Positions 12,531-41,121 of a stretch of 64,000 bases of DNA are shown here, in pieces. Below the pieces are notes generated by a model that made no database searches, was not told where the DNA came from, and saw only the letters and a program-made list of their open reading frames with translations. Where the stretch lies: positions 5,681-69,680 of the forward strand of contig WGMV01000026.1 in the NCBI GenBank assembly GCA_016124905.1, written 5' to 3'. How positions within the stretch are numbered: position 1 is the stretch's first letter; every line of letters starts with the position of its first letter. Source of the stretch: a bacterium (lineage in GTDB: Bacteria; Pseudomonadota; Alphaproteobacteria; Rickettsiales; RI-342). Made by a program: the position numbers and the translations under genes.

Positions 12531-14618
12531 CTAGGACGCTTTTGCCTGTGGGCGGCGCAGGTGGGACTCGATGATCTCCACGGCCTTGTTGAAGACTTCT
12601 GTCGGCTCCATGTCGGACGTGTCGATGATGATGGCGTCTTTCGCGGGTTTCAGCGGGGCGACCGCGCGTTTCTGGTCGCGCTCGTCACGGGCGCGGAGCT
12701 CGGCCAGCACGGTGTCGTAATCCACTTGGGCCTCAAAGCCTTCCACTTCCTGAAAACGGCGGCGGGCGCGGGCTTCCACGCTGGCAGTGATGTAGAATTT
12801 CACCTCGGCGTCCGGGCAGACGACAGTGCCGATGTCGCGCCCGTCCAGGATAGCCCCGCCCAGGCGGCGGGCATATTGCTGCTGGTATTCCAGCAGGGCC
12901 TGGCGCACCAGCGGGCTGGCGGAGACGATGGAGGCGGCGTTGCCGACATTCTCCTGCCGCAGGCGCGGGTTGAGCAGGTCCTCATCGCGCAGGTCACGCG
13001 CGGCTTTCAGGGCCTCCTCCTCGTCCGAGGGGTCGAGGTTGAGGTTAAGCAGTTTCAGCCCCACGGCGCGATAGAGGCGGCCGGTATCGAGATAGGACAG
13101 GCCGAAATAGCTGGCAAGGCGCCGTGCCAGGGTGCCCTTGCCGGATGCGGCAGGGCCGTCGATGGCGATGCAGAGGCTCTGGATGGGGCCTCGGGTTTTG
13201 GTTTCCACACCGGCGGGTGGGGCTGCCAGCACCGGGGCTTCCTCCTCCATCTCCATATCGGCGCCGAGCGCCTGCATGAGGGAGATGAAGTTGGGGAAGC
13301 TGGTGGCAATCGGGCTGCCATCGTCGATGATGACCGGGCGGCGGGCGACTAGACCGAGCACGAGGAAGGCCATGGCGATGCGGTGGTCCAGCTGCGCCTG
13401 GATGGTAGCGCCGCCCTGGATTTCGGCATTGCCGGTGACTTTCAGCCAGGGTTCGCCCTGCTCGTCCTTGCCGGTTTCGGCATGGACGCCGCAGGCGAGC
13501 AGGCCTTCCATGACGGCTTCGAGGCGGTTGCTTTCCTTTACGGTTAGTTCGGAAAGGCCGTAAAAGATACTGGTGCCTTCCGCGCAGGCGGCGGCGACGG
13601 CCAGGATGGGATATTCGTCGATCATGCTCGGCGCACGGCTGGCGGGCACGATGACGGCCCTCAGGCGGCTGCTGCGGATGCGCAGATCGGCCACCGGCTC
13701 GCCCGACATCTCGCGCGGGTTGCGCCATTCGATGTCCGCGCCCATTTCCTTCAGCGTTTCGAACAAGCCGATGCGGTGGGGGTTCATGCCCACGCTCGGC
13801 AGGGTGATGTCGCTATGTTGCGTGATGAGCGCGGCTACGGCAGGAAATGCGGCCGAGGAAGGATCCGCCGGGACGTGGAGCGGCTCGGCGGGGGCAATGA
13901 GGTCCTGCTGGCCTTCCAGCCTGATGGAGATGGCGCCGTCCTTGTCGGTTTCCTGCATCAATCTTGCGCCGAAATGGCGGAGCATGCGCTCCGTATGGTC
14001 GCGCGTGGGGGCGGGCTCGATGACGGTGGTGACGCCGGGGGTATTTAACGCGGCCAGCAGCACGCCGGATTTCACCTGGGCGGAAGCCACCGGCAGGCGG
14101 TACTGGATGGGCAGCGGCATATCCGTGCCCTGCAGCAAAAGAGGCAGCAGGCCCGACTTGCCGCCACGGCTGCGGGAAAGGATGCGCGCGCCCATCTGCT
14201 CCAGCGGGGTGATGATGCGGCCCATCGGGCGGCGGCGCAGGCTGGCATCGCCGGTGAAGAAGCTGTTGAAACCATAGGGCGTGACCAGGCCCATCAGCAG
14301 ACGGGTGCTGGTGCCGGAATTGCCCATGTCGAGGATGTTTTCGGGCTCGTGCAGGCCGCCTACCCCAAGGCCCTTGACGTGCCAGTAGCCTTTGCCGACA
14401 CGCTGAATGCCCACGCCCATCAGGCGAAGCGCATCGGCGGTGCGGTGGACATCCTCGCCTTCCAGCAGCCCGTAGATCTCCGTGGTGCCGATGGCCTGGG
14501 AGGCCAGCATCAGGGAGCGGTGGGAGATGGATTTATCGCCCGGGACATAGGCCGTGCCGTTGAGGCTGGGGCTTGCGTGGGACGTGGCGGGCTTGCGGAT
14601 GTGATCGTGTGATTCCAT
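12531..14618 (-). CDS. aroA: fused 3-phosphoshikimate 1-carboxyvinyltransferase (EPSP synthase) / cytidylate kinase
   Basis: Residues 1 to about 445 are AroA-like (LNGTAYVPGDKSISHRSLMLA...DHRIAMAFLVLGL...). An acidic/Pro linker follows, then Cmk (IAIDGPAASGKGTLARRLA...LDGRDIGTVV). One uninterrupted 695-codon frame. Confidence 0.85.
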   Translation of the reverse strand: MESHDHIRKPATSHASPSLNGTAYVPGDKSISHRSLMLASQAIGTTEIYGLLEGEDVHRTADALRLMGVGIQRVGKGYWHVKGLGVGGLHEPENILDMGNSGTSTRLLMGLVTPYGFNSFFTGDASLRRRPMGRIITPLEQMGARILSRSRGGKSGLLPLLLQGTDMPLPIQYRLPVASAQVKSGVLLAALNTPGVTTVIEPAPTRDHTERMLRHFGARLMQETDKDGAISIRLEGQQDLIAPAEPLHVPADPSSAAFPAVAALITQHSDITLPSVGMNPHRIGLFETLKEMGADIEWRNPREMSGEPVADLRIRSSRLRAVIVPASRAPSMIDEYPILAVAAACAEGTSIFYGLSELTVKESNRLEAVMEGLLACGVHAETGKDEQGEPWLKVTGNAEIQGGATIQAQLDHRIAMAFLVLGLVARRPVIIDDGSPIATSFPNFISLMQALGADMEMEEEAPVLAAPPAGVETKTRGPIQSLCIAIDGPAASGKGTLARRLASYFGLSYLDTGRLYRAVGLKLLNLNLDPSDEEEALKAARDLRDEDLLNPRLRQENVGNAASIVSASPLVRQALLEYQQQYARRLGGAILDGRDIGTVVCPDAEVKFYITASVEARARRRFQEVEGFEAQVDYDTVLAELRARDERDQKRAVAPLKPAKDAIIIDTSDMEPTEVFNKAVEIIESHLRRPQAKAS

Positions 14619-16684: not shown

Positions 16685-19600
16685 CTATTGCACCGCCATT
16701 TCGGTAGTGCGAACGATGGCTGCACCCGTTGCGGGCGGGGACAGATTACCAAGCGCGGTAACATCCACGTCGTCAAAGGCCCACATGTCCACACCGGTTT
16801 CCTGCACCATCTCATGCCAGTCGTGGGCAATGTCCGATGCGGTGCGGGTATCGATTTGTGGGATAGTGACAATGTTCTGGTGATCCTGTGCTGTATTCCA
16901 CGCCGTTGTGTCCACCGCACCCTGGTTGACGCCCTGCTCATTGTCACCGCGAACGGCGAACCAATTCTGAGCGGCAATGGGATCAAAGCCGAAGGGCAGA
17001 ACAGGCTGTCGATCTATTTGCTGCTGCTGGCTCGCGCGAGACAGGGATGTCATGAACCCTATGCCGCGATCGGCCGTCAAATCACCCTGAACCTCAATGG
17101 AGCCAAGGTTAAAAGTGACGCCTTCGGCAATCGTAATTATTCCATTATTAAATCCGTAATCCAGGCCGTTCATGAAAATGGGCTTGCCGTCAGGGCCGAA
17201 TAATTCAGGATTATCCTGGGAATTGAACGGGAATGGCCCACGGGATTCAGCGGGTTGGTTCAGCCAGTTCAGGAATTCACCGTAATAATTGGTGCCGTTA
17301 ACCTCATCGATCACCATCAGGTTTTCGGAAATCTGCGCCGTGATGGCAAGAGCCTGTGCATTGGCCTGAATGGCCTCGTCCGAAGTCAATTCATGGTCGG
17401 AATCGATGGCAAAGCTGAATGGCACAGCATCGATTTCACTGGTGAGCGGCGTAAAGCTATAGGGGGTCGTGGTTGGCTCCGGCACGGTGACGTTGGCCAC
17501 GCCATCGGCACCGGCAACGGCTTCCACACTGGCGTTGAGAGTTGAGGTGTCCATGTTCGCGCCTTGCGCCATGTCAGCCACAATGCTGTTTTTCAACTCG
17601 CCTTCCGGCAGCAGGCCCATCAGCTGATCATATTCTTCCTGCGTCAGCCCATCGGCGGCGGCGGCCTGGTAAATGTCCATCCAGCTCACCGGGCCATTGG
17701 CGGCTGCGGCGGCATAGGCCTGACCCAGAGCAGTATCCGCAGGGATCCTGTCGGCGGGTATCTCGGCGTTCAGCTGATCAACAGCATTGTTGTAGAGTTC
17801 GGTATTGCCGGTGCTGCTGGCATCACTGTCGAGCAATTCGCCCAGCCCCATGGTGATGGCCGCGCCAAGCTGGCCTTCCTTGGTGGCGAGAATCTGATCG
17901 GGATGCGTGCCAACCAGCGTGGCAAGGGATTGCCAATCGCCATCCCCACCCAGCGCGCCCGCAAGGGACTGAGCAAAGGCGTTGGATGTCGTGCGCGCGG
18001 CATTTACCTCCGGGCTGTTTTCGGGGGCCGGGGTTGCATACCCATCGCCCCAGTTCGGCGAGGTGTCGTTGATGTTTCCAGCGCGATCCGCCACATAGGT
18101 ATCGCTCCTCAAATCGAGCGCGATATCCACCGCCTCTTTCGATCCTTCCGGCACCATGCCGCCGAAGAAGCTCATCAGCATGCGGCCAAAGCCCTGGATC
18201 AATTGGTCCAGCTGCTCGTTGCCGGTGTGGATGTCATTGAACATGTCCAGAATGCCCATGGCCGCACCACCCATGCCGCCTGCCATGTTATTGGCAACGG
18301 CGTCGATGGCGGTGGAAGCGTCGGCGCGTCGGCGTTCCGCCACGTTCTGCGCGGTGCTGTTCAGCCATTGTGTGTAAGCCGCAGAGCCAGGCTGGGGCAT
18401 GATGCCGGTGCTGTCACCCAGCGTGCCGTAGCGATTAGCCACCTGGCTGTTCACCATGCTCTGGAAGCTGGCAAAATCCGTCGGCGGGCTAATGGGATTG
18501 CCCTGCGCGTCCGCGGTGGGGTAACCATGCGCCTGCATCCAGGCGGCGTCGATGGCGATAGGAGGTGTATTCGGGTCGCCGTCATTATCGAATTGCAGCA
18601 CACCGCCCGCGGCGATGGAGATGCGCGAAGGACCGGCATCGCTATTCAGGACAGTAAAAGTGTCGAGCTCTTCTGTCACCTGGGCATTGATGAGGTTCTG
18701 CAGGTCTTGAATCTTACCCGGGTCAACCGTAAGCGGTACGGGAGGAGGATTGGCAACAATTCCATTGCTCGCCAACTCTTGCGGCGTCACCCCATAACGG
18801 GCACAGAGCCGCCCAAGCATGGACTGGGCGAAGCTGACATTCTGGCTTGTGCTGGCAGGCTCCGTGGTGGCATCGGTCGTGCCGCCTACCATCAGCACCT
18901 GATAGTTGTGGTCTGTCGGCGGGTGAGCCGTATCGATACCAAAGCTTGCCAGATTGATGCCAAGCTCGCTGGCATACATGGTGAACTGTGTGTTGGCGGC
19001 ATCGTAACCGGCGCCGAAATTCACGGCAGCCATGCCGGATAACTGGTCCGGAGCAGCCATGTTGCCGCCGAAGGCCTGCTCAACCATATGCCGTTTCCAG
19101 TCGGCCAGTTCAGCATCGGTCCTTGGATAGGGATCCGGCGTGCCATCATGATTAAAATCAAAATTATACAGACGGGCGATTTCTTCCCAGGCTGCCGTGT
19201 CCGTCAGCGGAGGAGGATTCTGCACCAGGTTCGCCACGCGCAGCGGGTAATCCACGTAATCCTGCACCACTTCGGCCATCACATCCGGCGTGGCGGCGGG
19301 CGGCCCCATCAAGCGATTGACTGCAAGCTCGCGAAACGCCGGGGGCATGCTTCCGAAATCGGCAATCAGGTTTTGCAAGGGACCAGCAATGGAGGTGCTG
19401 GTAGTGCTATCCATGCCAGTGGTCGTCAACAAGGACGTGGTAATGTTGCCCACAACGCCCACGCGGCGGGCCCGCTCTTGTGGGTTATCGGCTTCATTCA
19501 CCCAGTTCGACAATTCCAACAGCGCTTCATCATAATGATCCGGCCCTTGGGCGAGATCATTGAAGATGGCGTTCATTCTATCTGTCGGTGTTATTTGGGA

Positions 19601-36017: not shown

Positions 36018-37253
36018 ATGGGTGCCATGAGCAACGCCGATAACATCACCGCCAAGCAGGATGCCGCACCGGGTTTTGGGCGCGGGCGTTCGGCCTTGGG
36101 GACGTTTCTGGGCGGGTTTACGGGTGCTGCGATTTTCGGCACCATCCGCAAAATCATGCAGACACGTGTGGCCCAGGAAAAAGAACTCGACCAGCATCGC
36201 CCACTGCCACAGGCCAGCGAAGAGCAGGTGCGCCAGAGCGGCGTGCTGCGCTACCGCGATGCGGCGGAAAAGCTGATACCAGGCTTTGACCGCAAGACGG
36301 CGAATGAATATGGCGAATTCGCGGGTTTCTTTGCCTTCATGACCGGCGCGACGGTGCTGAAACCCCTTTATGACCGACTGCTGGGCAAGCGCGATGACGC
36401 ATATGAGAAGCGCGGCCCAGTCGCGGCCGCCAAAGGCGGGCTAAGCTGGCTTGCGCATTATGTCATCCGCTTTCCCGTGGCCGCTGCGGCGGCACTGGTG
36501 CCCTATGCATTGATGGGAAAATTTCTGGACGAGAACCTCTACACAGGCCCGAAGGAGATCCCCGCGGATGCCAATCTGGCGGAGCATGCGGCGCTGAGCG
36601 CGCACAACGCGGTGCAGACGCCATTCGGCAAAATGTTTTCCCGCGTGGCCATCATGTTCAGCACCTTCAACGTGTCGCACCGCGCCCTGTCGCGCACAGT
36701 GGACAAAGTCATTGGCCCGGCCCCGGGCAAGGCGGAAGAGCCCAAACCGCCGCGCAATATCTTCGCCAATGCATTCAAGGAATTATACGACACCACCTTT
36801 GGCACCATCGTGCCGGTGATGATTTCCGTCACGCCGCTGGTGAGCACGCTCTTTTTCACCAACGACACGCAGAAAAAGGCGTTTCAGCAACGGTTGAGCG
36901 CCAAGCTTCAGCGCGTTGAAGAGGCGAATGCGCTCGACCATGTCGCCGGGCTCGGTTTCAAGGCGGGCGAAGCCCTGAACCAGGGTGTGAAACGTGTTTA
37001 CGACACGGTAATGCCTGAACAAGCACGCGCCAAACTTATGGAAAAAGGCCTGAACATCGGCGAGCAGGAAGCCATTGCCGCCTATGCGCTTGCAACCGGG
37101 CTTGCCTATGCAAGCTATGCGGCCACGCGTACGGATGCGGTGGAACCGGCCGTGAAAAAAACTTTCGCCGTCGGCAAGGTGCTGGCGCCGCATGCCGATG
37201 CGCAACTGGCGGCATCGCACGATGCACCCGTGACGGAACAGGCCGTGCATTGA
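36018..37253 (+). CDS. hypothetical membrane-associated protein (411 aa)
   Basis: Long clean ORF with several hydrophobic segments (GTFLGGFTGAAIFGTI, FAGFFAFMTGATVL, VIRFPVAAAAALVPYALMG, IVPVMISVTPLVSTLFF). No motif recognised. Confidence 0.65.
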   Translation: MGAMSNADNITAKQDAAPGFGRGRSALGTFLGGFTGAAIFGTIRKIMQTRVAQEKELDQHRPLPQASEEQVRQSGVLRYRDAAEKLIPGFDRKTANEYGEFAGFFAFMTGATVLKPLYDRLLGKRDDAYEKRGPVAAAKGGLSWLAHYVIRFPVAAAAALVPYALMGKFLDENLYTGPKEIPADANLAEHAALSAHNAVQTPFGKMFSRVAIMFSTFNVSHRALSRTVDKVIGPAPGKAEEPKPPRNIFANAFKELYDTTFGTIVPVMISVTPLVSTLFFTNDTQKKAFQQRLSAKLQRVEEANALDHVAGLGFKAGEALNQGVKRVYDTVMPEQARAKLMEKGLNIGEQEAIAAYALATGLAYASYAATRTDAVEPAVKKTFAVGKVLAPHADAQLAASHDAPVTEQAVH

Positions 37254-37311: not shown

Positions 37312-37740
37312 ATGAACCATCACGCACAGCTTGAAGATCACCTGGTATTCGAGGAAACAACCGCGGGCATCCACATCCGCGTGGTGCCGGTTTATCTGGA
37401 TGAGCATTCCGCACCGGAAGATCATAATTACGTGTGGGCCTACCATGTGCATATCGAAAACCTCGGCTCGCGCACGGTGCAGCTGTTGAACCGTTACTGG
37501 CGCATCACCGATGCGCAGGGGCGCGTGGAAGAGGTGAGCGGCCCGGGCGTGGTGGGTGAGCAACCCGTATTGAAGCCGGGCGAGGCCTATGAATATACCA
37601 GCGGCTGCCCGCTGAACACGGCATCGGGCTTCATGGTGGGCCATTATGAAATGGCAACCGACGAAGGCGAGCGTTTCAACGTCGCCATTCCGGCATTTGC
37701 GCTGGATGTGCCGGACCGCATTCCGGTAAGCATTCATTAA
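37312..37740 (+). CDS. apaG: ApaG (DUF525) protein
   Basis: VWAYHVHIENLGSRTVQLLNRYWRITDAQGRVEEVSGPGVVGEQPVLKPGEAYEYTSGCPL...G.M.G.Y is the canonical ApaG core. GAGG SD. Confidence 0.9.
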   Translation: MNHHAQLEDHLVFEETTAGIHIRVVPVYLDEHSAPEDHNYVWAYHVHIENLGSRTVQLLNRYWRITDAQGRVEEVSGPGVVGEQPVLKPGEAYEYTSGCPLNTASGFMVGHYEMATDEGERFNVAIPAFALDVPDRIPVSIH

Positions 37741-37852
37741 TATAAGCCTGACTATGTCAGGCTTATATTCCTTTGCCTTACCTGCGCTACACGCAGGACT
37801 ATGCCCGCATTAGCGGGCGGGCCCTCAATGGGCCAGTCGCGCGGCGCGCTCC
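37741..37852 (+). repeat. multi-hairpin intergenic mosaic, copy C
   Basis: TATAAGCCTGAC-TAT-GTCAGGCTTATA directly after the apaG stop. Then TGCCTTACC, hairpin CTGCG-CTACA-CGCAG, GACTATG, hairpin GCCCGC-ATTA-GCGGGC, and CAGTCGC...GCGCTCC. Confidence 0.7.
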
Positions 37853-37942
37853 GCCTTTTGTTGGCCCTTGGCGTTCGTATACGTGCAATTAACGAGACTC
37901 TAACTGCTTTTTAAGCCTTATCGGCTATGTTCCTAACACGAT

Positions 37943-40096
37943 ATGAACCAGCATGACCACGGTCATGGGAGAATAATGGTGGAACGTTTCAACGAACAGG
38001 CGCAGGCCGCCGTCAAACGCGAGCTTGAGATTATCTGGGCCGCGCATAAGCGCGTGGGGCTGGATGGCTACATGTGCCTTTACACCATGAACAATCAGGA
38101 TATCTGGCGCGCGCAGCAGCCAGGGCAGACATTCTGGTTCGGGCCAAACGAGAATGACGCGGCGGTGGAGCATCTGCGCCGCTATTACAATGACGGCAAC
38201 CTGCCCAACTCGCCGCTGCTGCTATGCCCGATTGTGCACAAGAAACAGCAAGGCACCGATAAGCCGGAGCCGATCGGATCGGGCATTGCGTGGAGCATGT
38301 CGCTTTGCCTCGGCATTGCGGAATTTTCCGCCGAGGGCGAGCAGCGCATGCGCATGGTGGGCGCCATGACGGGCCGCCTGACGCGCGGCGACAATAAAAA
38401 TGCGGGCCTCAAGATTGTGGCCATTGCCGACCGTATTTTGAAACCCACCGACGATACGGCGGTGGAAGGCTGCCGCGAGCTGTATGAGACATCCGGCTTT
38501 CAAAGCCAGGAATTCTACCCGTTCTATCTGCTTTCGGGCATCGAGTATCTTTCCAAGAACGGGTTGTTCATTCACCCCAATTTCATGCAGCTGGAATATA
38601 AGGGCCATAAGCTGAAGGATGCAGCCGTGGGTGAGGTGGTTTCCACCAATACCACCACCATTCAGACGCTTCAGGATGCGGCGACCTGCTGGCATGCCTA
38701 TGACCATCACCATTCGCTGTTTTTGCGGTTCGGCATCGATGCGCCGAATCTGGAAGATAATCTCAAATATTATAACCTGGTGGGGCGAGATTTTCGCCTG
38801 CTGGACAATACCGGCGCCAAGCACGTGGATGCCGACACGAGCGCGAGTTTCGACTTTCTGGTGGATGGCTGGCTGCCGCGCGGCGCGGTGACGGTGATCG
38901 GCGCAACAGGCGGCACGGGCAAAAGCTCGCTGGCGCATAACCTGGCGGTGAAATGCGCCATCGATTACAAACCGGGGGAACCGAACCCTACCTGGCTCGG
39001 ATCGAAGATCAACCTCGATAAATGCAAAGGCATCTGCGTGTATTTCTCGGGTGAGGACGGCCCTGCCATCGTGCATGCGCGCGCTAAGGTCTATGACCCG
39101 GAAGGGCGCGCGAAAAGGCTGATGTTTCAGCGCACGGATTTCGGCGAGGGCGGCACTATCTCCAGCTTTTTGAAAGAACTCTACAAGCTGCCGGACGTAC
39201 CGCTGGTGGTGATCGACCCCGCGCGAAAATACCTGACCGGGGATGAGAATGACGCCGGCGTGGTGAGCGAGTTTTTTGAAGCGATCGAGGAATTCGCCAT
39301 CAACAAGAATGCGGCGATGGTGGTGGTGCACCATCTGGTGAAAGGCGCACGCCCGAATAATGTGGCCGATATTTATGACATGCTGCGCGGCAGCCAGGTG
39401 TTTATCGACCGTCCGCGCGTGGTGATCGGCATGTACCGCGAAGGCGGGCATACGATTGCGGGGCTTTCCAAGAACAACATTCCGCCGCAGCTTGGCATGG
39501 TGCAGGGCGAACGGGTCTATCGCCGCGATGGCGACCGGCTTGAGCAGGTACTGATCGGCGCACGCGGGATGGATGCCGTGCTGGAGGATGAGGATTCGCC
39601 CATCGCAGCGGAAAAAGGATTTCTTCCGATTGAGAAGCTGATTGAAATGGGTCTGGTGGATGCGAAGCTGCTGATGCCGGATGCGCAAGTGGCACCCGCT
39701 GCTTCCGCGCCACCTACCGCAAATGCTCCTGCGCCAACTCCCGCAGCCGTACCCGCTGCACCACCTGCGCCAGTTATAACCGCACCGGCTCCCGTGGTTG
39801 CACCAGTAGCGCCCGCTCCCGTAGTTGCTCCTGCGGCACCTGCACCTGTGGCCGCACAGCCTGCACCACCTCCTGCTGTCGCACCTGCCGCTGTTCCACC
39901 GCCCCCCCGCCCGGTTACCGCCATGCGGCCAATCATGCGGCCTGCACGGCCTGCCGTGCGGCCGTTGCCGGTGCGGCCCGTTACGCCCGCGGCTCCGCCG
40001 GTGCAAGTGGCGGCCACACCCGGAGCATCCGCCGCCCCGACGCAGAAACCGCTTGAAACTCCCACGGTTCCCGGCGACAAACAGGGCAATAGTTAG
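37943..40096 (+). CDS. RecA-fold ATPase (AAA_25 / RepA-DnaB-like) with unknown N-terminal domain and Pro/Ala-rich C-terminal tail
   Basis: Walker A GATGGTGKSSLA, Walker B PLVVIDPARKYL, and AMVVVHHLVKGARP, which I associate with RepA-like helicase-family ATPases. The last ~140 aa are A/P/V low complexity. The start may be the ATG at 37976 (GGGAGA upstream). Confidence 0.75.
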   Translation: MNQHDHGHGRIMVERFNEQAQAAVKRELEIIWAAHKRVGLDGYMCLYTMNNQDIWRAQQPGQTFWFGPNENDAAVEHLRRYYNDGNLPNSPLLLCPIVHKKQQGTDKPEPIGSGIAWSMSLCLGIAEFSAEGEQRMRMVGAMTGRLTRGDNKNAGLKIVAIADRILKPTDDTAVEGCRELYETSGFQSQEFYPFYLLSGIEYLSKNGLFIHPNFMQLEYKGHKLKDAAVGEVVSTNTTTIQTLQDAATCWHAYDHHHSLFLRFGIDAPNLEDNLKYYNLVGRDFRLLDNTGAKHVDADTSASFDFLVDGWLPRGAVTVIGATGGTGKSSLAHNLAVKCAIDYKPGEPNPTWLGSKINLDKCKGICVYFSGEDGPAIVHARAKVYDPEGRAKRLMFQRTDFGEGGTISSFLKELYKLPDVPLVVIDPARKYLTGDENDAGVVSEFFEAIEEFAINKNAAMVVVHHLVKGARPNNVADIYDMLRGSQVFIDRPRVVIGMYREGGHTIAGLSKNNIPPQLGMVQGERVYRRDGDRLEQVLIGARGMDAVLEDEDSPIAAEKGFLPIEKLIEMGLVDAKLLMPDAQVAPAASAPPTANAPAPTPAAVPAAPPAPVITAPAPVVAPVAPAPVVAPAAPAPVAAQPAPPPAVAPAAVPPPPRPVTAMRPIMRPARPAVRPLPVRPVTPAAPPVQVAATPGASAAPTQKPLETPTVPGDKQGNS

Positions 40097-40116
40097 TTTG
40101 CACCTGTAGGTTTGCC

Positions 40117-41031
40117 ATGCATTGCCGTACATCCACCATGCTGGGTATTTTTTCACTCGCCACCTGGGCCATGCTGCCCGTGATGGCGGCGTGGCTCGGG
40201 CCGGTGCCCGCGATGCAGCTCAACATGCTGGCATTCACCACGGCGTTTATCCTGTATCTGGTGATCTGGAAATTCGAGCGCGCGCCCATCGGCAGCTATT
40301 TCAAACTGAAGCCGCATGTGTGGGGCATCGGGCTGGTCGGGATATTCGGGTTCCACATGGTGTATTTCCTGGCGTTCAAGCATGCGCCTTCGGTGGAAGC
40401 CTTTTTGATCGTCGAGTTCTGGCCGCTGCTGCTGCTGATTTTCTCCGCCCTGTTCGGCGGCACGAAACTGAAGACGGAACATTATATCGGCGCGGCGCTG
40501 GCGCTGGCTGGCGTGCTGCTGGCGATCACCAAGGGTGACTGGAACGCGTTGTTTTTCGTGTGGAAGCCTGGGCATGCGCTGGCGCTGCTGGCGGCGGTGA
40601 TCTGGTCGGGCTATTCGGTGATGAACAAGCGTTTTTCAAGCGACATTCCCGGCCATGCGGTGGGGATGTTCTGCGGGCTGGCGGCGGTGCTTTCGGGCAT
40701 CTGCCATTTCGTGTTCGAAGCGTGGCAGCCGCTTTCTCCTCTGCAATGGATTGTGATTGCCGTGATGGGAGCGCTGCCGATGGGTATTTCCTTCGTCTGG
40801 TGGCAGCATGGCATGCAGAAGGGCAATATGGCGCTGCTTGGTATTCTCGCATTCGCCATCACGGTGATCGGCACCTTGCTGCTGGTGCTGTTCGGCTATG
40901 CGCCCTTCTCTATCGCGATTGTGTTTGCCACCGTTCTGGTAACGCTTGGGGGCATCATGGGCAGCGGCATTACGCCCGCTTCGCTGAAGAAGGCGAAGGA
41001 TGACATCATGGATGAATCGGTGCATCCGTAA
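40117..41031 (+). CDS. EamA/DMT-family transporter (10 TM)
   Basis: Two EamA-like five-helix halves, hydrophobic throughout. Confidence 0.8.
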   Translation: MHCRTSTMLGIFSLATWAMLPVMAAWLGPVPAMQLNMLAFTTAFILYLVIWKFERAPIGSYFKLKPHVWGIGLVGIFGFHMVYFLAFKHAPSVEAFLIVEFWPLLLLIFSALFGGTKLKTEHYIGAALALAGVLLAITKGDWNALFFVWKPGHALALLAAVIWSGYSVMNKRFSSDIPGHAVGMFCGLAAVLSGICHFVFEAWQPLSPLQWIVIAVMGALPMGISFVWWQHGMQKGNMALLGILAFAITVIGTLLLVLFGYAPFSIAIVFATVLVTLGGIMGSGITPASLKKAKDDIMDESVHP

Positions 41032-41040
41032 TCTTTCTTT

Positions 41041-41121
41041 CGTCATTCCAGCGAAAGCTGGAATCCATGAAGAGACTCATCCGCAATGATTATACAGATT
41101 GCATGGCTCGCTGGAATGACG
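41041..41121. repeat. MITE/REP-like element with CGTCATTCC/GGAATGACG termini
   Basis: CGTCATTCCAGCGAAAGCTGGAATCCATG (41041-41069) and an inverted truncated copy ...GCTCGCTGGAATGACG (to 41121). Lies between the convergent EamA and cinA-like genes. Confidence 0.65.

Follow-up and report, generated by a model that had tools for sequence, protein, structure and literature searches.

A candidate domesticated primase-helicase-type ATPase in the chromosomes of uncultured Rickettsiales-like Alphaproteobacteria

RepA/AAA_25 helicases are textbook replication proteins of mobile elements, and it may be asked what such a protein is doing as a solitary gene in a bacterial chromosome. The question is raised by an open reading frame (ORF) of 717 aa at positions 37943..40096 (+) of a 64,000-nt stretch of Rickettsiales DNA (assembly GCA_016124905.1, contig WGMV01000026.1, positions 5,681 to 69,680 of the forward strand; the whole stretch is called the window here), where it is present as listed in a preliminary description of this DNA. 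We place the probability at roughly 0.55 that the gene encodes an anciently domesticated protein of the primase-helicase type, which would now serve the chromosome of one lineage as a DNA helicase, with a probable part in recombination repair or replication restart. The biochemical class of the protein is well supported, and the biological role is one that we infer. No description of the family was found in the literature searched and, as far as that literature shows, its N-terminal domain (N-domain), its domesticated status, and its association with AddAB appear to be undescribed. Residue numbers refer throughout to the 717-aa ORF that starts at 37943.

The ATPase half and the N-terminal domain

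When the protein was searched against Pfam, the sole match was to AAA_25 (PF13481), which covers aa 299-468 with a score of 80.2 bits, well over the cut-off of 27 (E 2e-22). The same domain is carried by the best 120 of 441 homologues without exception (120/120). The closest sequence in the Protein Data Bank (PDB) is the RSF1010 RepA helicase (1g8y), which was found at an E value of 1e-5 when the single sequence served as query and at 1e-7 when the family profile did. Matches to the NCBIfam models phage_DnaB, RAD51, and RadA (E 0.07-0.14) fall far under their cut-offs, with phage_DnaB reaching 12.1 bits where 498 are demanded. Neither DnaB nor DnaB_C was found in the Pfam search, the zinc finger and Lon-like domain of RadA/Sms were not detected with Pfam or NCBIfam, and the position of the RadA KNRFG motif reads SKNNIPP. 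Membership in DnaB or RadA/Sms was rejected because the defining domains and model scores are missing. Both have in common with the protein a RecA-fold ring-helicase core and are likewise conserved chromosomal genes of DNA metabolism, but the protein has none of their distinguishing parts, including the N-terminal helical domain of DnaB.

An AlphaFold2 model of aa 1-560, made with a 45-sequence alignment, has a mean predicted local distance difference test score (pLDDT) of 87.8. Foldseek searches of PDB with this model again place RepA first (1nlf_A, E 5.8e-11, target-normalised template modelling (TM) score 0.62; 1g8y_A, TM 0.64), so that RepA is both the best sequence match and the best structure match for aa ~300-540; the other top matches are RadA (8rxc, E 9e-11), DnaB (E ~3e-10), and Rad51/RadA recombinases. 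The preliminary description had reported a RepA-like ATPase with Walker A, Walker B, and VVVHHLVKG motifs, and all three lie where it had put them, at aa 320-328, 421-426, and 460-468 (Table 1). In the 45-sequence alignment, G323-G324-x-G326-K327-S328, E371-D372, D425-P426, H463-H464, R482-G483-S484-Q485, and K510-x-N512-I513-P514 are invariant, and the full catalytic set (K327, E371, D425, H463/H464, R482) aligns with the matching motifs of RepA. By homology with RepA, R482 is the probable arginine finger, and LSKNNIPP presumably stands at the position of helicase motif H4, which we take to be VSKANYG in RepA. On every sequence and fold criterion tested, the assignment to the AAA_25/RepA-like RecA-fold ATPases is well supported.

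RepA forms a ring hexamer with interfacial ATP sites and an arginine finger and translocates 5'-3' on single-stranded DNA. It is encoded on a plasmid, consists of one domain of 279 aa, and depends on a separate primase, RepB', and an initiator, RepC, as partners, whereas the protein examined here, at ~19% identity, has a fused N-domain of 280 aa, is chromosomal and vertically inherited, and has no RepC or RepB' partner.

The N-terminal ~290 aa gave no match in Pfam, NCBIfam, PHROGs, PADLOC, or PDB sequences (single sequence and profile), in agreement with the earlier view that this part could not be recognised. A Pfam scan of 26 N-domains at E<=1 was also without a match, the archaeo-eukaryotic primase (AEP) families included (Prim-Pol PF09250; RepB primase PF16793/PF22448). 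When an N-domain profile was run against 1.84 billion representative proteins, 36 clusters were returned, all of which are family members or fragments except two; these (P0152 and P0154) are repetitive proteins matched by chance and were rejected as outside relatives. At the level of sequence the domain is new. Modelled alone with AlphaFold2 and a 26-sequence alignment, it nonetheless has a confident fold (pLDDT 92, predicted TM score 0.90), and its invariant or near-invariant residues are E27, which sits on helix 1, N89, H99, W117, R135, R148, K157, Y195, Y202, Y253, and N273.

Foldseek searches of PDB with the N-domain gave no match at E<=1e-3. The top ranks, all below significance, are AEP primases, headed by RepB' (3h20, E 0.013, probability 0.80, TM 0.34 over 267 columns) and followed by the polymerase domain of LigD (E 0.06-0.15, TM 0.25), with RRM-like folds further down. 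An alpha/beta core followed by a helical bundle, as in the N-domain model, is presumably also the layout of the published RepB' structure. A search of BFVD with the full-length model retrieved phage fusions of Prim_Pol or RepB-primase with AAA_25, which align over 630-700 columns at E 1e-22 to 1e-14, whereas matches over roughly the ATPase half (about 260-330 columns) have E values around 1e-12; since the full-length scores are the better ones, the N-domain appears to contribute. These bifunctional primase-helicases of phages and plasmids (PHROG 239, 906), which are the best full-length structural matches, have the same domain order and sizes as the protein. The PHROG primase/helicase families match only via the helicase half, at profile positions ~350-560, which is again the same order. 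The protein differs from these fusions in its N-domain, for which no relationship to Prim-Pol or RepB' could be detected by sequence and which is without the catalytic acidic triad. The N-domain may be an AEP-like module that has diverged strongly and lost catalysis.

An active primase-helicase was also considered, in which a non-canonical site in the N-domain (e.g. E27, H99, N89, or the helical sub-domain) would serve chromosomal replication restart or lagging-strand priming. The domain order, the AEP primases at the head of the fold matches, and the strong constraint on a domain with several invariant polar residues (ratio of nonsynonymous to synonymous substitution rates, dN/dS, 0.10) are what such an enzyme would display. 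However, no conserved Asp or Glu was found on the core beta-strands (aa 40-225) of 82 family members (only H99 reaches 87% conservation), and the catalytic motifs of primase-polymerases are missing, as the preliminary description had judged by eye. The strand that might bear motif I reads LLL[C/N/D/G]P and is variable at the key position, and RepB' residues D43, D44, D100, and H108 have no counterpart. Tandem copies of the whole ~270-aa N-domain give rise to members of ~800-900 aa (L084/L085/L076 and L025/L035/L039; also P0004, P0005, P0016, P0116, and others). On the family tree these long forms make up two clades that are apart from each other, which points to two duplication events. A second copy in tandem would be less usual for a catalytic domain than for one that binds. 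Priming activity is accordingly regarded as improbable. The conserved basic and aromatic surface, together with the tandem duplication in two sub-clades, suggests that the N-domain binds nucleic acid or a partner.

Family distribution, inheritance, and the AddAB locus

To place the gene in its lineage, homologues were collected from protein databases and genomes. A search of 5.8 billion proteins gave 441 matches, the best 120 of which all have E values <1e-187 and identities of 43-77% (the identical P0001 apart); most of these cover the N-domain and the ATPase and not the tail. When each GTDB species was represented by one genome, relatives were detected in 95 stretches, representing ~95 species-level metagenome-assembled genomes (MAGs). 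Of these stretches, 80 were kept as different contigs of different MAGs, and neighbourhoods were counted over 86 loci with the ORFs that lie within +-10 kb. The carriers are all uncultured and are titled Rickettsiales, Alphaproteobacteria, or Pseudomonadota bacterium. There is one copy per locus and never more, on contigs of up to 2.35 Mb (L080, CBDFGU010000009.1), and the GC content of the loci runs from 38% to 62%. A typical member has ~540-555 aa, and the ORF is intact in 86/86 loci. The term orphan, which had been applied to the gene, is thus true of its local neighbourhood but false for the protein, which belongs to a large family conserved in ~95 species-level genomes.

It had also been stated that the gene has no integrase, primase, or replication partner here. 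Across the family a recurrent partner locus does exist, one that could not be seen from the window. A gene for AddB, a ~970-aa PD-(D/E)XK protein, lies divergently and immediately upstream in 42 of 86 loci, mostly across a spacer of 30-124 nt (median 65), and AddA (UvrD-type helicase plus PD-(D/E)XK nuclease) stands behind AddB in 21 loci. AddB adjacency is present on most deep branches of the neighbour-joining family tree, on both sides of the midpoint root, and is therefore most simply ancestral and lost repeatedly, the window lineage included. Compared with these neighbours, the gene evolves slowly. Among genome pairs in which the neighbouring genes are shared, 99.5% of 861 show higher conservation for it than for AddB (median identity 53.7% versus 36.2%), and in the comparison with AddA the figure is 98% of 210 pairs (62.8% versus 49.1%). 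Its pairwise distances follow those of AddB (Spearman rho 0.76, a value reached in 0/999 Mantel permutations). The 77%-identical relative P0002 lies on a 460-kb contig, in perfect synteny with the window locus. In the comparison with this relative, the N-domain has a dN/dS of 0.10 and the ATPase, in which 98% of the amino acids are identical, one of 0.026. This is the pattern that would be expected of a vertically inherited and functionally important gene.

The regions upstream of the gene in 80 loci were scanned for SOS, CtrA, and DnaA boxes. CtrA half-sites number 14 where ~3 would be expected, against a background that was not matched for AT-rich intergenic DNA. In one sub-clade (L013, L014, L016, L018, L020, L023, and others) the ~60-nt spacer between addB and the gene contains a ~30-nt element conserved at the DNA level, TTCATGATATTTTAACCTCTGGAAAGGTATAA, in which CAT is the start codon of addB on the other strand; the element may be a shared divergent promoter or operator. 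A gene of ~145 aa for DUF1465 (PF07323), which we take to be the family of RcdA (regulator of CtrA degradation), was seen in many relatives between addA and addB on the opposite strand (L005:4512-4949 (+); a 23-locus cluster, ~3 kb upstream), an unusual insertion inside the addBA pair.

No recognisable mobile element was found around members of the family. Loci without AddB have, where sampled, housekeeping neighbours (aromatic amino-acid lyase, MscS, Ppx, FKBP, TrkH, MFS), and more distant relatives of the window gene lie between a DsbD-like gene and xseB/ispA/glnE/ATP-synthase genes or beside addA/addB. No integrase, primase, initiator, or transposase cluster recurs among the annotated ORF clusters of the 86 loci. 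Relatives were absent from 72,556 plasmids and 50,697 phage genomes searched by tblastn, and none of the 2.9 million viral contigs of IMG/VR encodes one. Around the window gene, a search for flanking direct repeats or att sites yielded only short chance matches inside coding sequence. There is no tRNA within 10 kb in 37 of 60 loci, and a tRNA adjoins the gene directly in few sub-lineages (tRNA-Ser upstream in L037, L048, and L051; tRNA-Gly downstream in L032, L050, L054, and L061). At L049:11697-13138, a tRNA-Cys lies 90 nt downstream of the gene and a tyrosine-recombinase integrase follows on the far side of the tRNA, so that in this one genome a genomic island appears to start at the tRNA-Cys. 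Carriage as cargo of a prophage, integrative and conjugative element (ICE), or plasmid was rejected on the grounds of the housekeeping neighbours, the lack of repeats, the lack of plasmid, phage, or viral matches, and the co-variation with AddB. The preliminary description had named an N-domain of a known primase family, with the locus in a degraded prophage or ICE in relatives, as a finding that would speak against its reading; what was found is a resemblance to primases that stays below significance and no relative in a recognisable mobile element.

Proposed role and its alternatives

The explanation favoured here can be set out as follows. The C-terminal half, as an ATPase of the RSF1010 RepA type, would form a hexameric ring whose ATP sites lie between neighbouring subunits, and the ring would translocate along single-stranded DNA as a helicase. 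The N-domain, possibly descended from an AEP of the RepB' kind, would bind DNA or a partner and most likely position or load the motor rather than make primers, because it lacks the metal-binding acidic triad and presents an invariant basic and aromatic surface (R135, R148, K157, W117, Y195, Y202). The order of the two parts, primase-like over ~300 aa and then AAA_25 helicase, fits the architecture of phage and plasmid primase-helicases. Such a gene would have become fixed in the chromosome of an ancestor of this uncultured, Rickettsiales-like clade of Alphaproteobacteria and would have been passed on vertically from then on. Ancestrally it would have stood head-to-head with addB-addA across a spacer of ~60 nt, and from this position the most likely role would be to assist, as an accessory helicase, the repair of double-strand breaks, recombination repair, or the restart of replication. 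The motifs, the fold, the distribution, the selection, and the synteny are results of the analysis; the hexamer, the helicase activity, DNA binding by the N-domain, and the role in repair are predictions. The protein would work most like a phage or plasmid primase-helicase without the priming, and would differ from these as a clade-wide, vertically inherited chromosomal gene ancestrally paired with addBA.

Several observations weigh against this explanation. The link to AddAB is one of synteny only, between genes that are divergent and not co-operonic, and it has been lost in half of the loci, this window among them. An alphaproteobacterial LexA box was found upstream of the gene in 0/80 loci. 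When E. coli DnaB and RadA were searched by tblastn against 1.5 Mb of flanks from the clade, no match was found, a result that is uninformative because the flanks cover only +-10 kb per copy. AEP ancestry of the N-domain is not established, as the Foldseek match is below significance (E 0.013, TM 0.34) and no AEP catalytic residue is conserved. Homology to RepB' or AEP was not demonstrated by profile-profile comparison with hhalign, in which a 30-sequence alignment of the RSF1010-type RepB' family was used (probability 0.5%, E 0.12), and the residues invariant in that alignment (D43, D44, D100, H108, and R111) have no counterparts in the N-domain.

A stronger form of the same idea would have a plasmid or phage primase-helicase that was captured at the base of a clade of environmental Rickettsiales-like bacteria. 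Its primase domain would have lost catalysis, become a new module for the recognition of DNA or a partner, and been duplicated independently in two sub-clades, and the protein would have become an indispensable, lineage-specific component of chromosomal double-strand-break repair or replication restart with AddAB, possibly substituting for RadA, RecG, or PriA. We regard this version as rather unlikely.

Another possibility would be that the RecA-fold ATPase has a substrate other than DNA and functions either in KaiC-like signalling or as an accessory ATPase of a type IV secretion system (T4SS) of the rvh type. Several tandem VirB6/TrbL paralogues and VirB4 lie just downstream in 12-16 loci, mostly of one sub-clade, with 46 VirB6-like ORFs in 16 loci (e.g. 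L036:13340-19066); AAA_25 is moreover a broad family, and KaiC is among the weak PDB sequence matches. However, the T4SS genes are convergent with the gene and not co-transcribed, and the loci that bear them are nearly confined to that one sub-clade, with L008 as single outlier in the clade of the window. By both sequence and structure the nearest proteins are DNA helicases and recombinases, and the matches to KaiC have E values of only ~0.5, so that a function away from DNA seems to us a poor prospect. The T4SS genes bear on the kinship of the carriers as well. The presence of several RvhB6 copies is characteristic of the rvh T4SS of Rickettsiales, and basal environmental families carry rvh too (PMC11077975, PMC9352585). 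The multicopy VirB6 is consistent with this, and the clade that bears the gene appears to be related to basal, environmental Rickettsiales.

More doubtful still is that the protein takes over or shares the role of a DnaB, RadA/Sms, RecG, or PriA that the clade has lost. It behaves as a core gene, being single-copy, vertical, and highly conserved, and in structure few proteins are closer to it than RadA and DnaB, but the domains that characterise both are missing, as described above, and there is no sign that a canonical helicase is missing from the clade, the search of the 1.5 Mb of flanks being uninformative on this point. We know of no accepted precedent in bacteria for the replacement of DnaB.

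A decaying, functionless relic of the replication module of a plasmid, phage, or ICE, left when the rest of the element was lost, might have been suggested by the architecture, the tRNAs adjoining in few sub-lineages, and the integrase of L049. The data on selection and distribution already speak against it, and it is hardly credible: the ORF is intact at every locus with its catalytic residues invariant and dN/dS at 0.03-0.10, the gene is more conserved than addA and addB and co-varies with its chromosomal neighbour, relatives are absent from the phage, plasmid, and viral collections searched, no repeats flank the gene, and the L049 integrase lies past the tRNA. Of the two earlier suggestions, a domesticated remnant of a mobile element or a new NTPase module, domestication fits the data, and remnant does not fit a gene under strong purifying selection that is single-copy in ~95 genomes. 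Helicase-like ATPases with new N-terminal fusions are a frequent component of defence systems, but a single-gene anti-phage or anti-plasmid ATPase is just as implausible here, as 0 families of PADLOC-DB match at E<=0.01, the gene is not in defence islands, and its vertical, single-copy, and slow evolution is the opposite of the patchy, fast turnover of defence genes.

If the favoured explanation holds, this RepA/AAA_25 helicase, which behaves like a chromosomal core gene and in roughly 95 species is slower to evolve than AddAB, would be a clean case in which a replication module of mobile elements was domesticated long ago. The N-domain adds a new, confidently folded family of 280 residues that has no Pfam entry and, if it is a dead AEP primase, would be a further pseudo-enzyme reused as a binding module. 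Should the AddAB link be functional, the protein would be an unrecognised accessory helicase of alphaproteobacterial break repair. As the clade appears to be related to basal, environmental Rickettsiales, its lineage-specific DNA-maintenance genes could also help to trace the changes that genome maintenance underwent as dependence on hosts evolved. The biological role is only a prediction, and no long-standing question hinges on the gene.

Gene boundaries, C-terminal tail, and flanking DNA

The true start of the gene is probably the third in-frame ATG, at 37976, because GGGAG lies 4-5 nt upstream of it, the database entry P0001 (100% identity to the window protein) has 706 aa, and homologues align only from about residue 12 on. 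The hairpin that directly follows the apaG stop codon (Table 1) is terminator-like and separates apaG from the gene, which therefore has its own upstream region of ~200 nt; no further copies of the hairpin were found in the window, so that it is single-copy and not a dispersed repeat. The upstream region contains neither an alphaproteobacterial LexA box (GTTC-N7-GTTC) nor an E. coli-type SOS box. An antisense ORF of 644 aa at 38222-40156 was rejected as a GC-driven artefact, since the GC content at third codon positions (0.73) backs the + frame and the antisense ORFs of relatives are mere shadows of the conserved gene.

Table 1. Positions of the gene and its features in the window
Feature	Position	Strand	Residues	Remarks
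Hairpin	37739..37769	+		Perfect 14-bp stem, 3-nt loop, directly after apaG stop codon
Upstream non-coding region	37770..37975	+		Between hairpin and probable start
Probable coding sequence	37976..40096	+		706 aa plus stop
Family-specific N-domain	37976..38815	+	12-291	Alpha/beta core ~40-225, helical bundle ~229-290
Inter-domain linker	38816..38845	+	292-301	Flexible, pLDDT <50
RepA-like RecA-fold ATPase (AAA_25) and small C-terminal beta sub-domain	38846..39562	+	302-540	
Walker A / P-loop GATGGTGKS	38900..38926	+	320-328	G323, G324, G326, K327, S328 invariant
SGEDG	39047..39061	+	369-373	Invariant E371-D372 align with RSF1010 RepA AED motif (catalytic Glu)
Walker B LVVIDP	39203..39220	+	421-426	D425, P426 invariant
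VVVHHLVKG	39320..39346	+	460-468	Invariant H463-H464 align with RepA LHH (gamma-phosphate sensor His)
LRGSQVFIDRPR	39383..39418	+	481-492	Invariant R482 aligns with RepA RGSS arginine
LSKNNIPP	39464..39487	+	508-515	Invariant K-N-I-P, on beta sub-domain
Acidic/helical C-terminal segment	39563..39673	+	541-577	Most family members end here
Pro/Ala-rich tail	39674..40093	+	578-717	Lineage-specific

The Pro/Ala composition that had been noted for the last 140 aa was confirmed at 30% Pro and 28% Ala. The tail comprises a PA/PV spacer, a basic RPxxRP repeat at aa 656-680 (nt 39908-39982), and a terminal peptide QKPLET..GDKQG at aa 701-717 (nt 40043-40093), and it is built partly from imperfect 24- and 15-nt DNA repeats. 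It is judged to be coding because it stays in frame in the 77%-identical relative despite indels; the RP repeat and the terminal peptide are conserved there, and dN/dS of the tail against this relative is ~0.18, a value obtained where dS is saturated. The tail is found only in the closest relatives of the window protein (P0001-P0003), and other members end in a short acidic helix. It is best read as a recently acquired disordered tether with a short basic or interaction peptide. A comparison with envelope-spanning or scaffold proteins, made in the preliminary description, found no support, as the tail is limited to these closest relatives and no transmembrane or secretion feature accompanies it.

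The window context is ordinary core chromosome. The gene is flanked by ApaG upstream and an EamA transporter downstream, and the earlier observation that no mobile-element partner lies near it was borne out, integrase and primase genes being absent nearby. Further out are DUF2336, bacterioferritin, a CinA-like protein, MetAP, RadC, DUF2748, plsY, dprA, topA, rnr, rseP, dxr, and an aroA-cmk fusion, the last of which is one 695-aa ORF that joins EPSP synthase (aroA) and cytidylate kinase (cmk) at 12531-14618 (-). Two further ORFs of the window lack a Pfam assignment. One of 1458 aa at 16685-21061 (-) matches no Pfam family at E<=0.001, and the other, of 411 aa at 36018-37253 (+), lies without a Pfam match between bacterioferritin and apaG; its position is kept in the syntenic relative L001, where the ORF has 430 aa and is likewise without a match. 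In another relative, L029, a permuted (two-piece) transfer-messenger RNA (tmRNA) gene was found by ARAGORN about 6 kb upstream of the gene (L029:3705-4093); permuted tmRNA is typical of Alphaproteobacteria. Between the convergent EamA and CinA-like genes of the window lies a 25-nt inverted repeat (41041-41121), with arms that are 80% complementary and 31 nt apart; it is single-copy in the window, and its left arm holds the palindrome GTCATTCCAGCGAAAGCTGGAAT.

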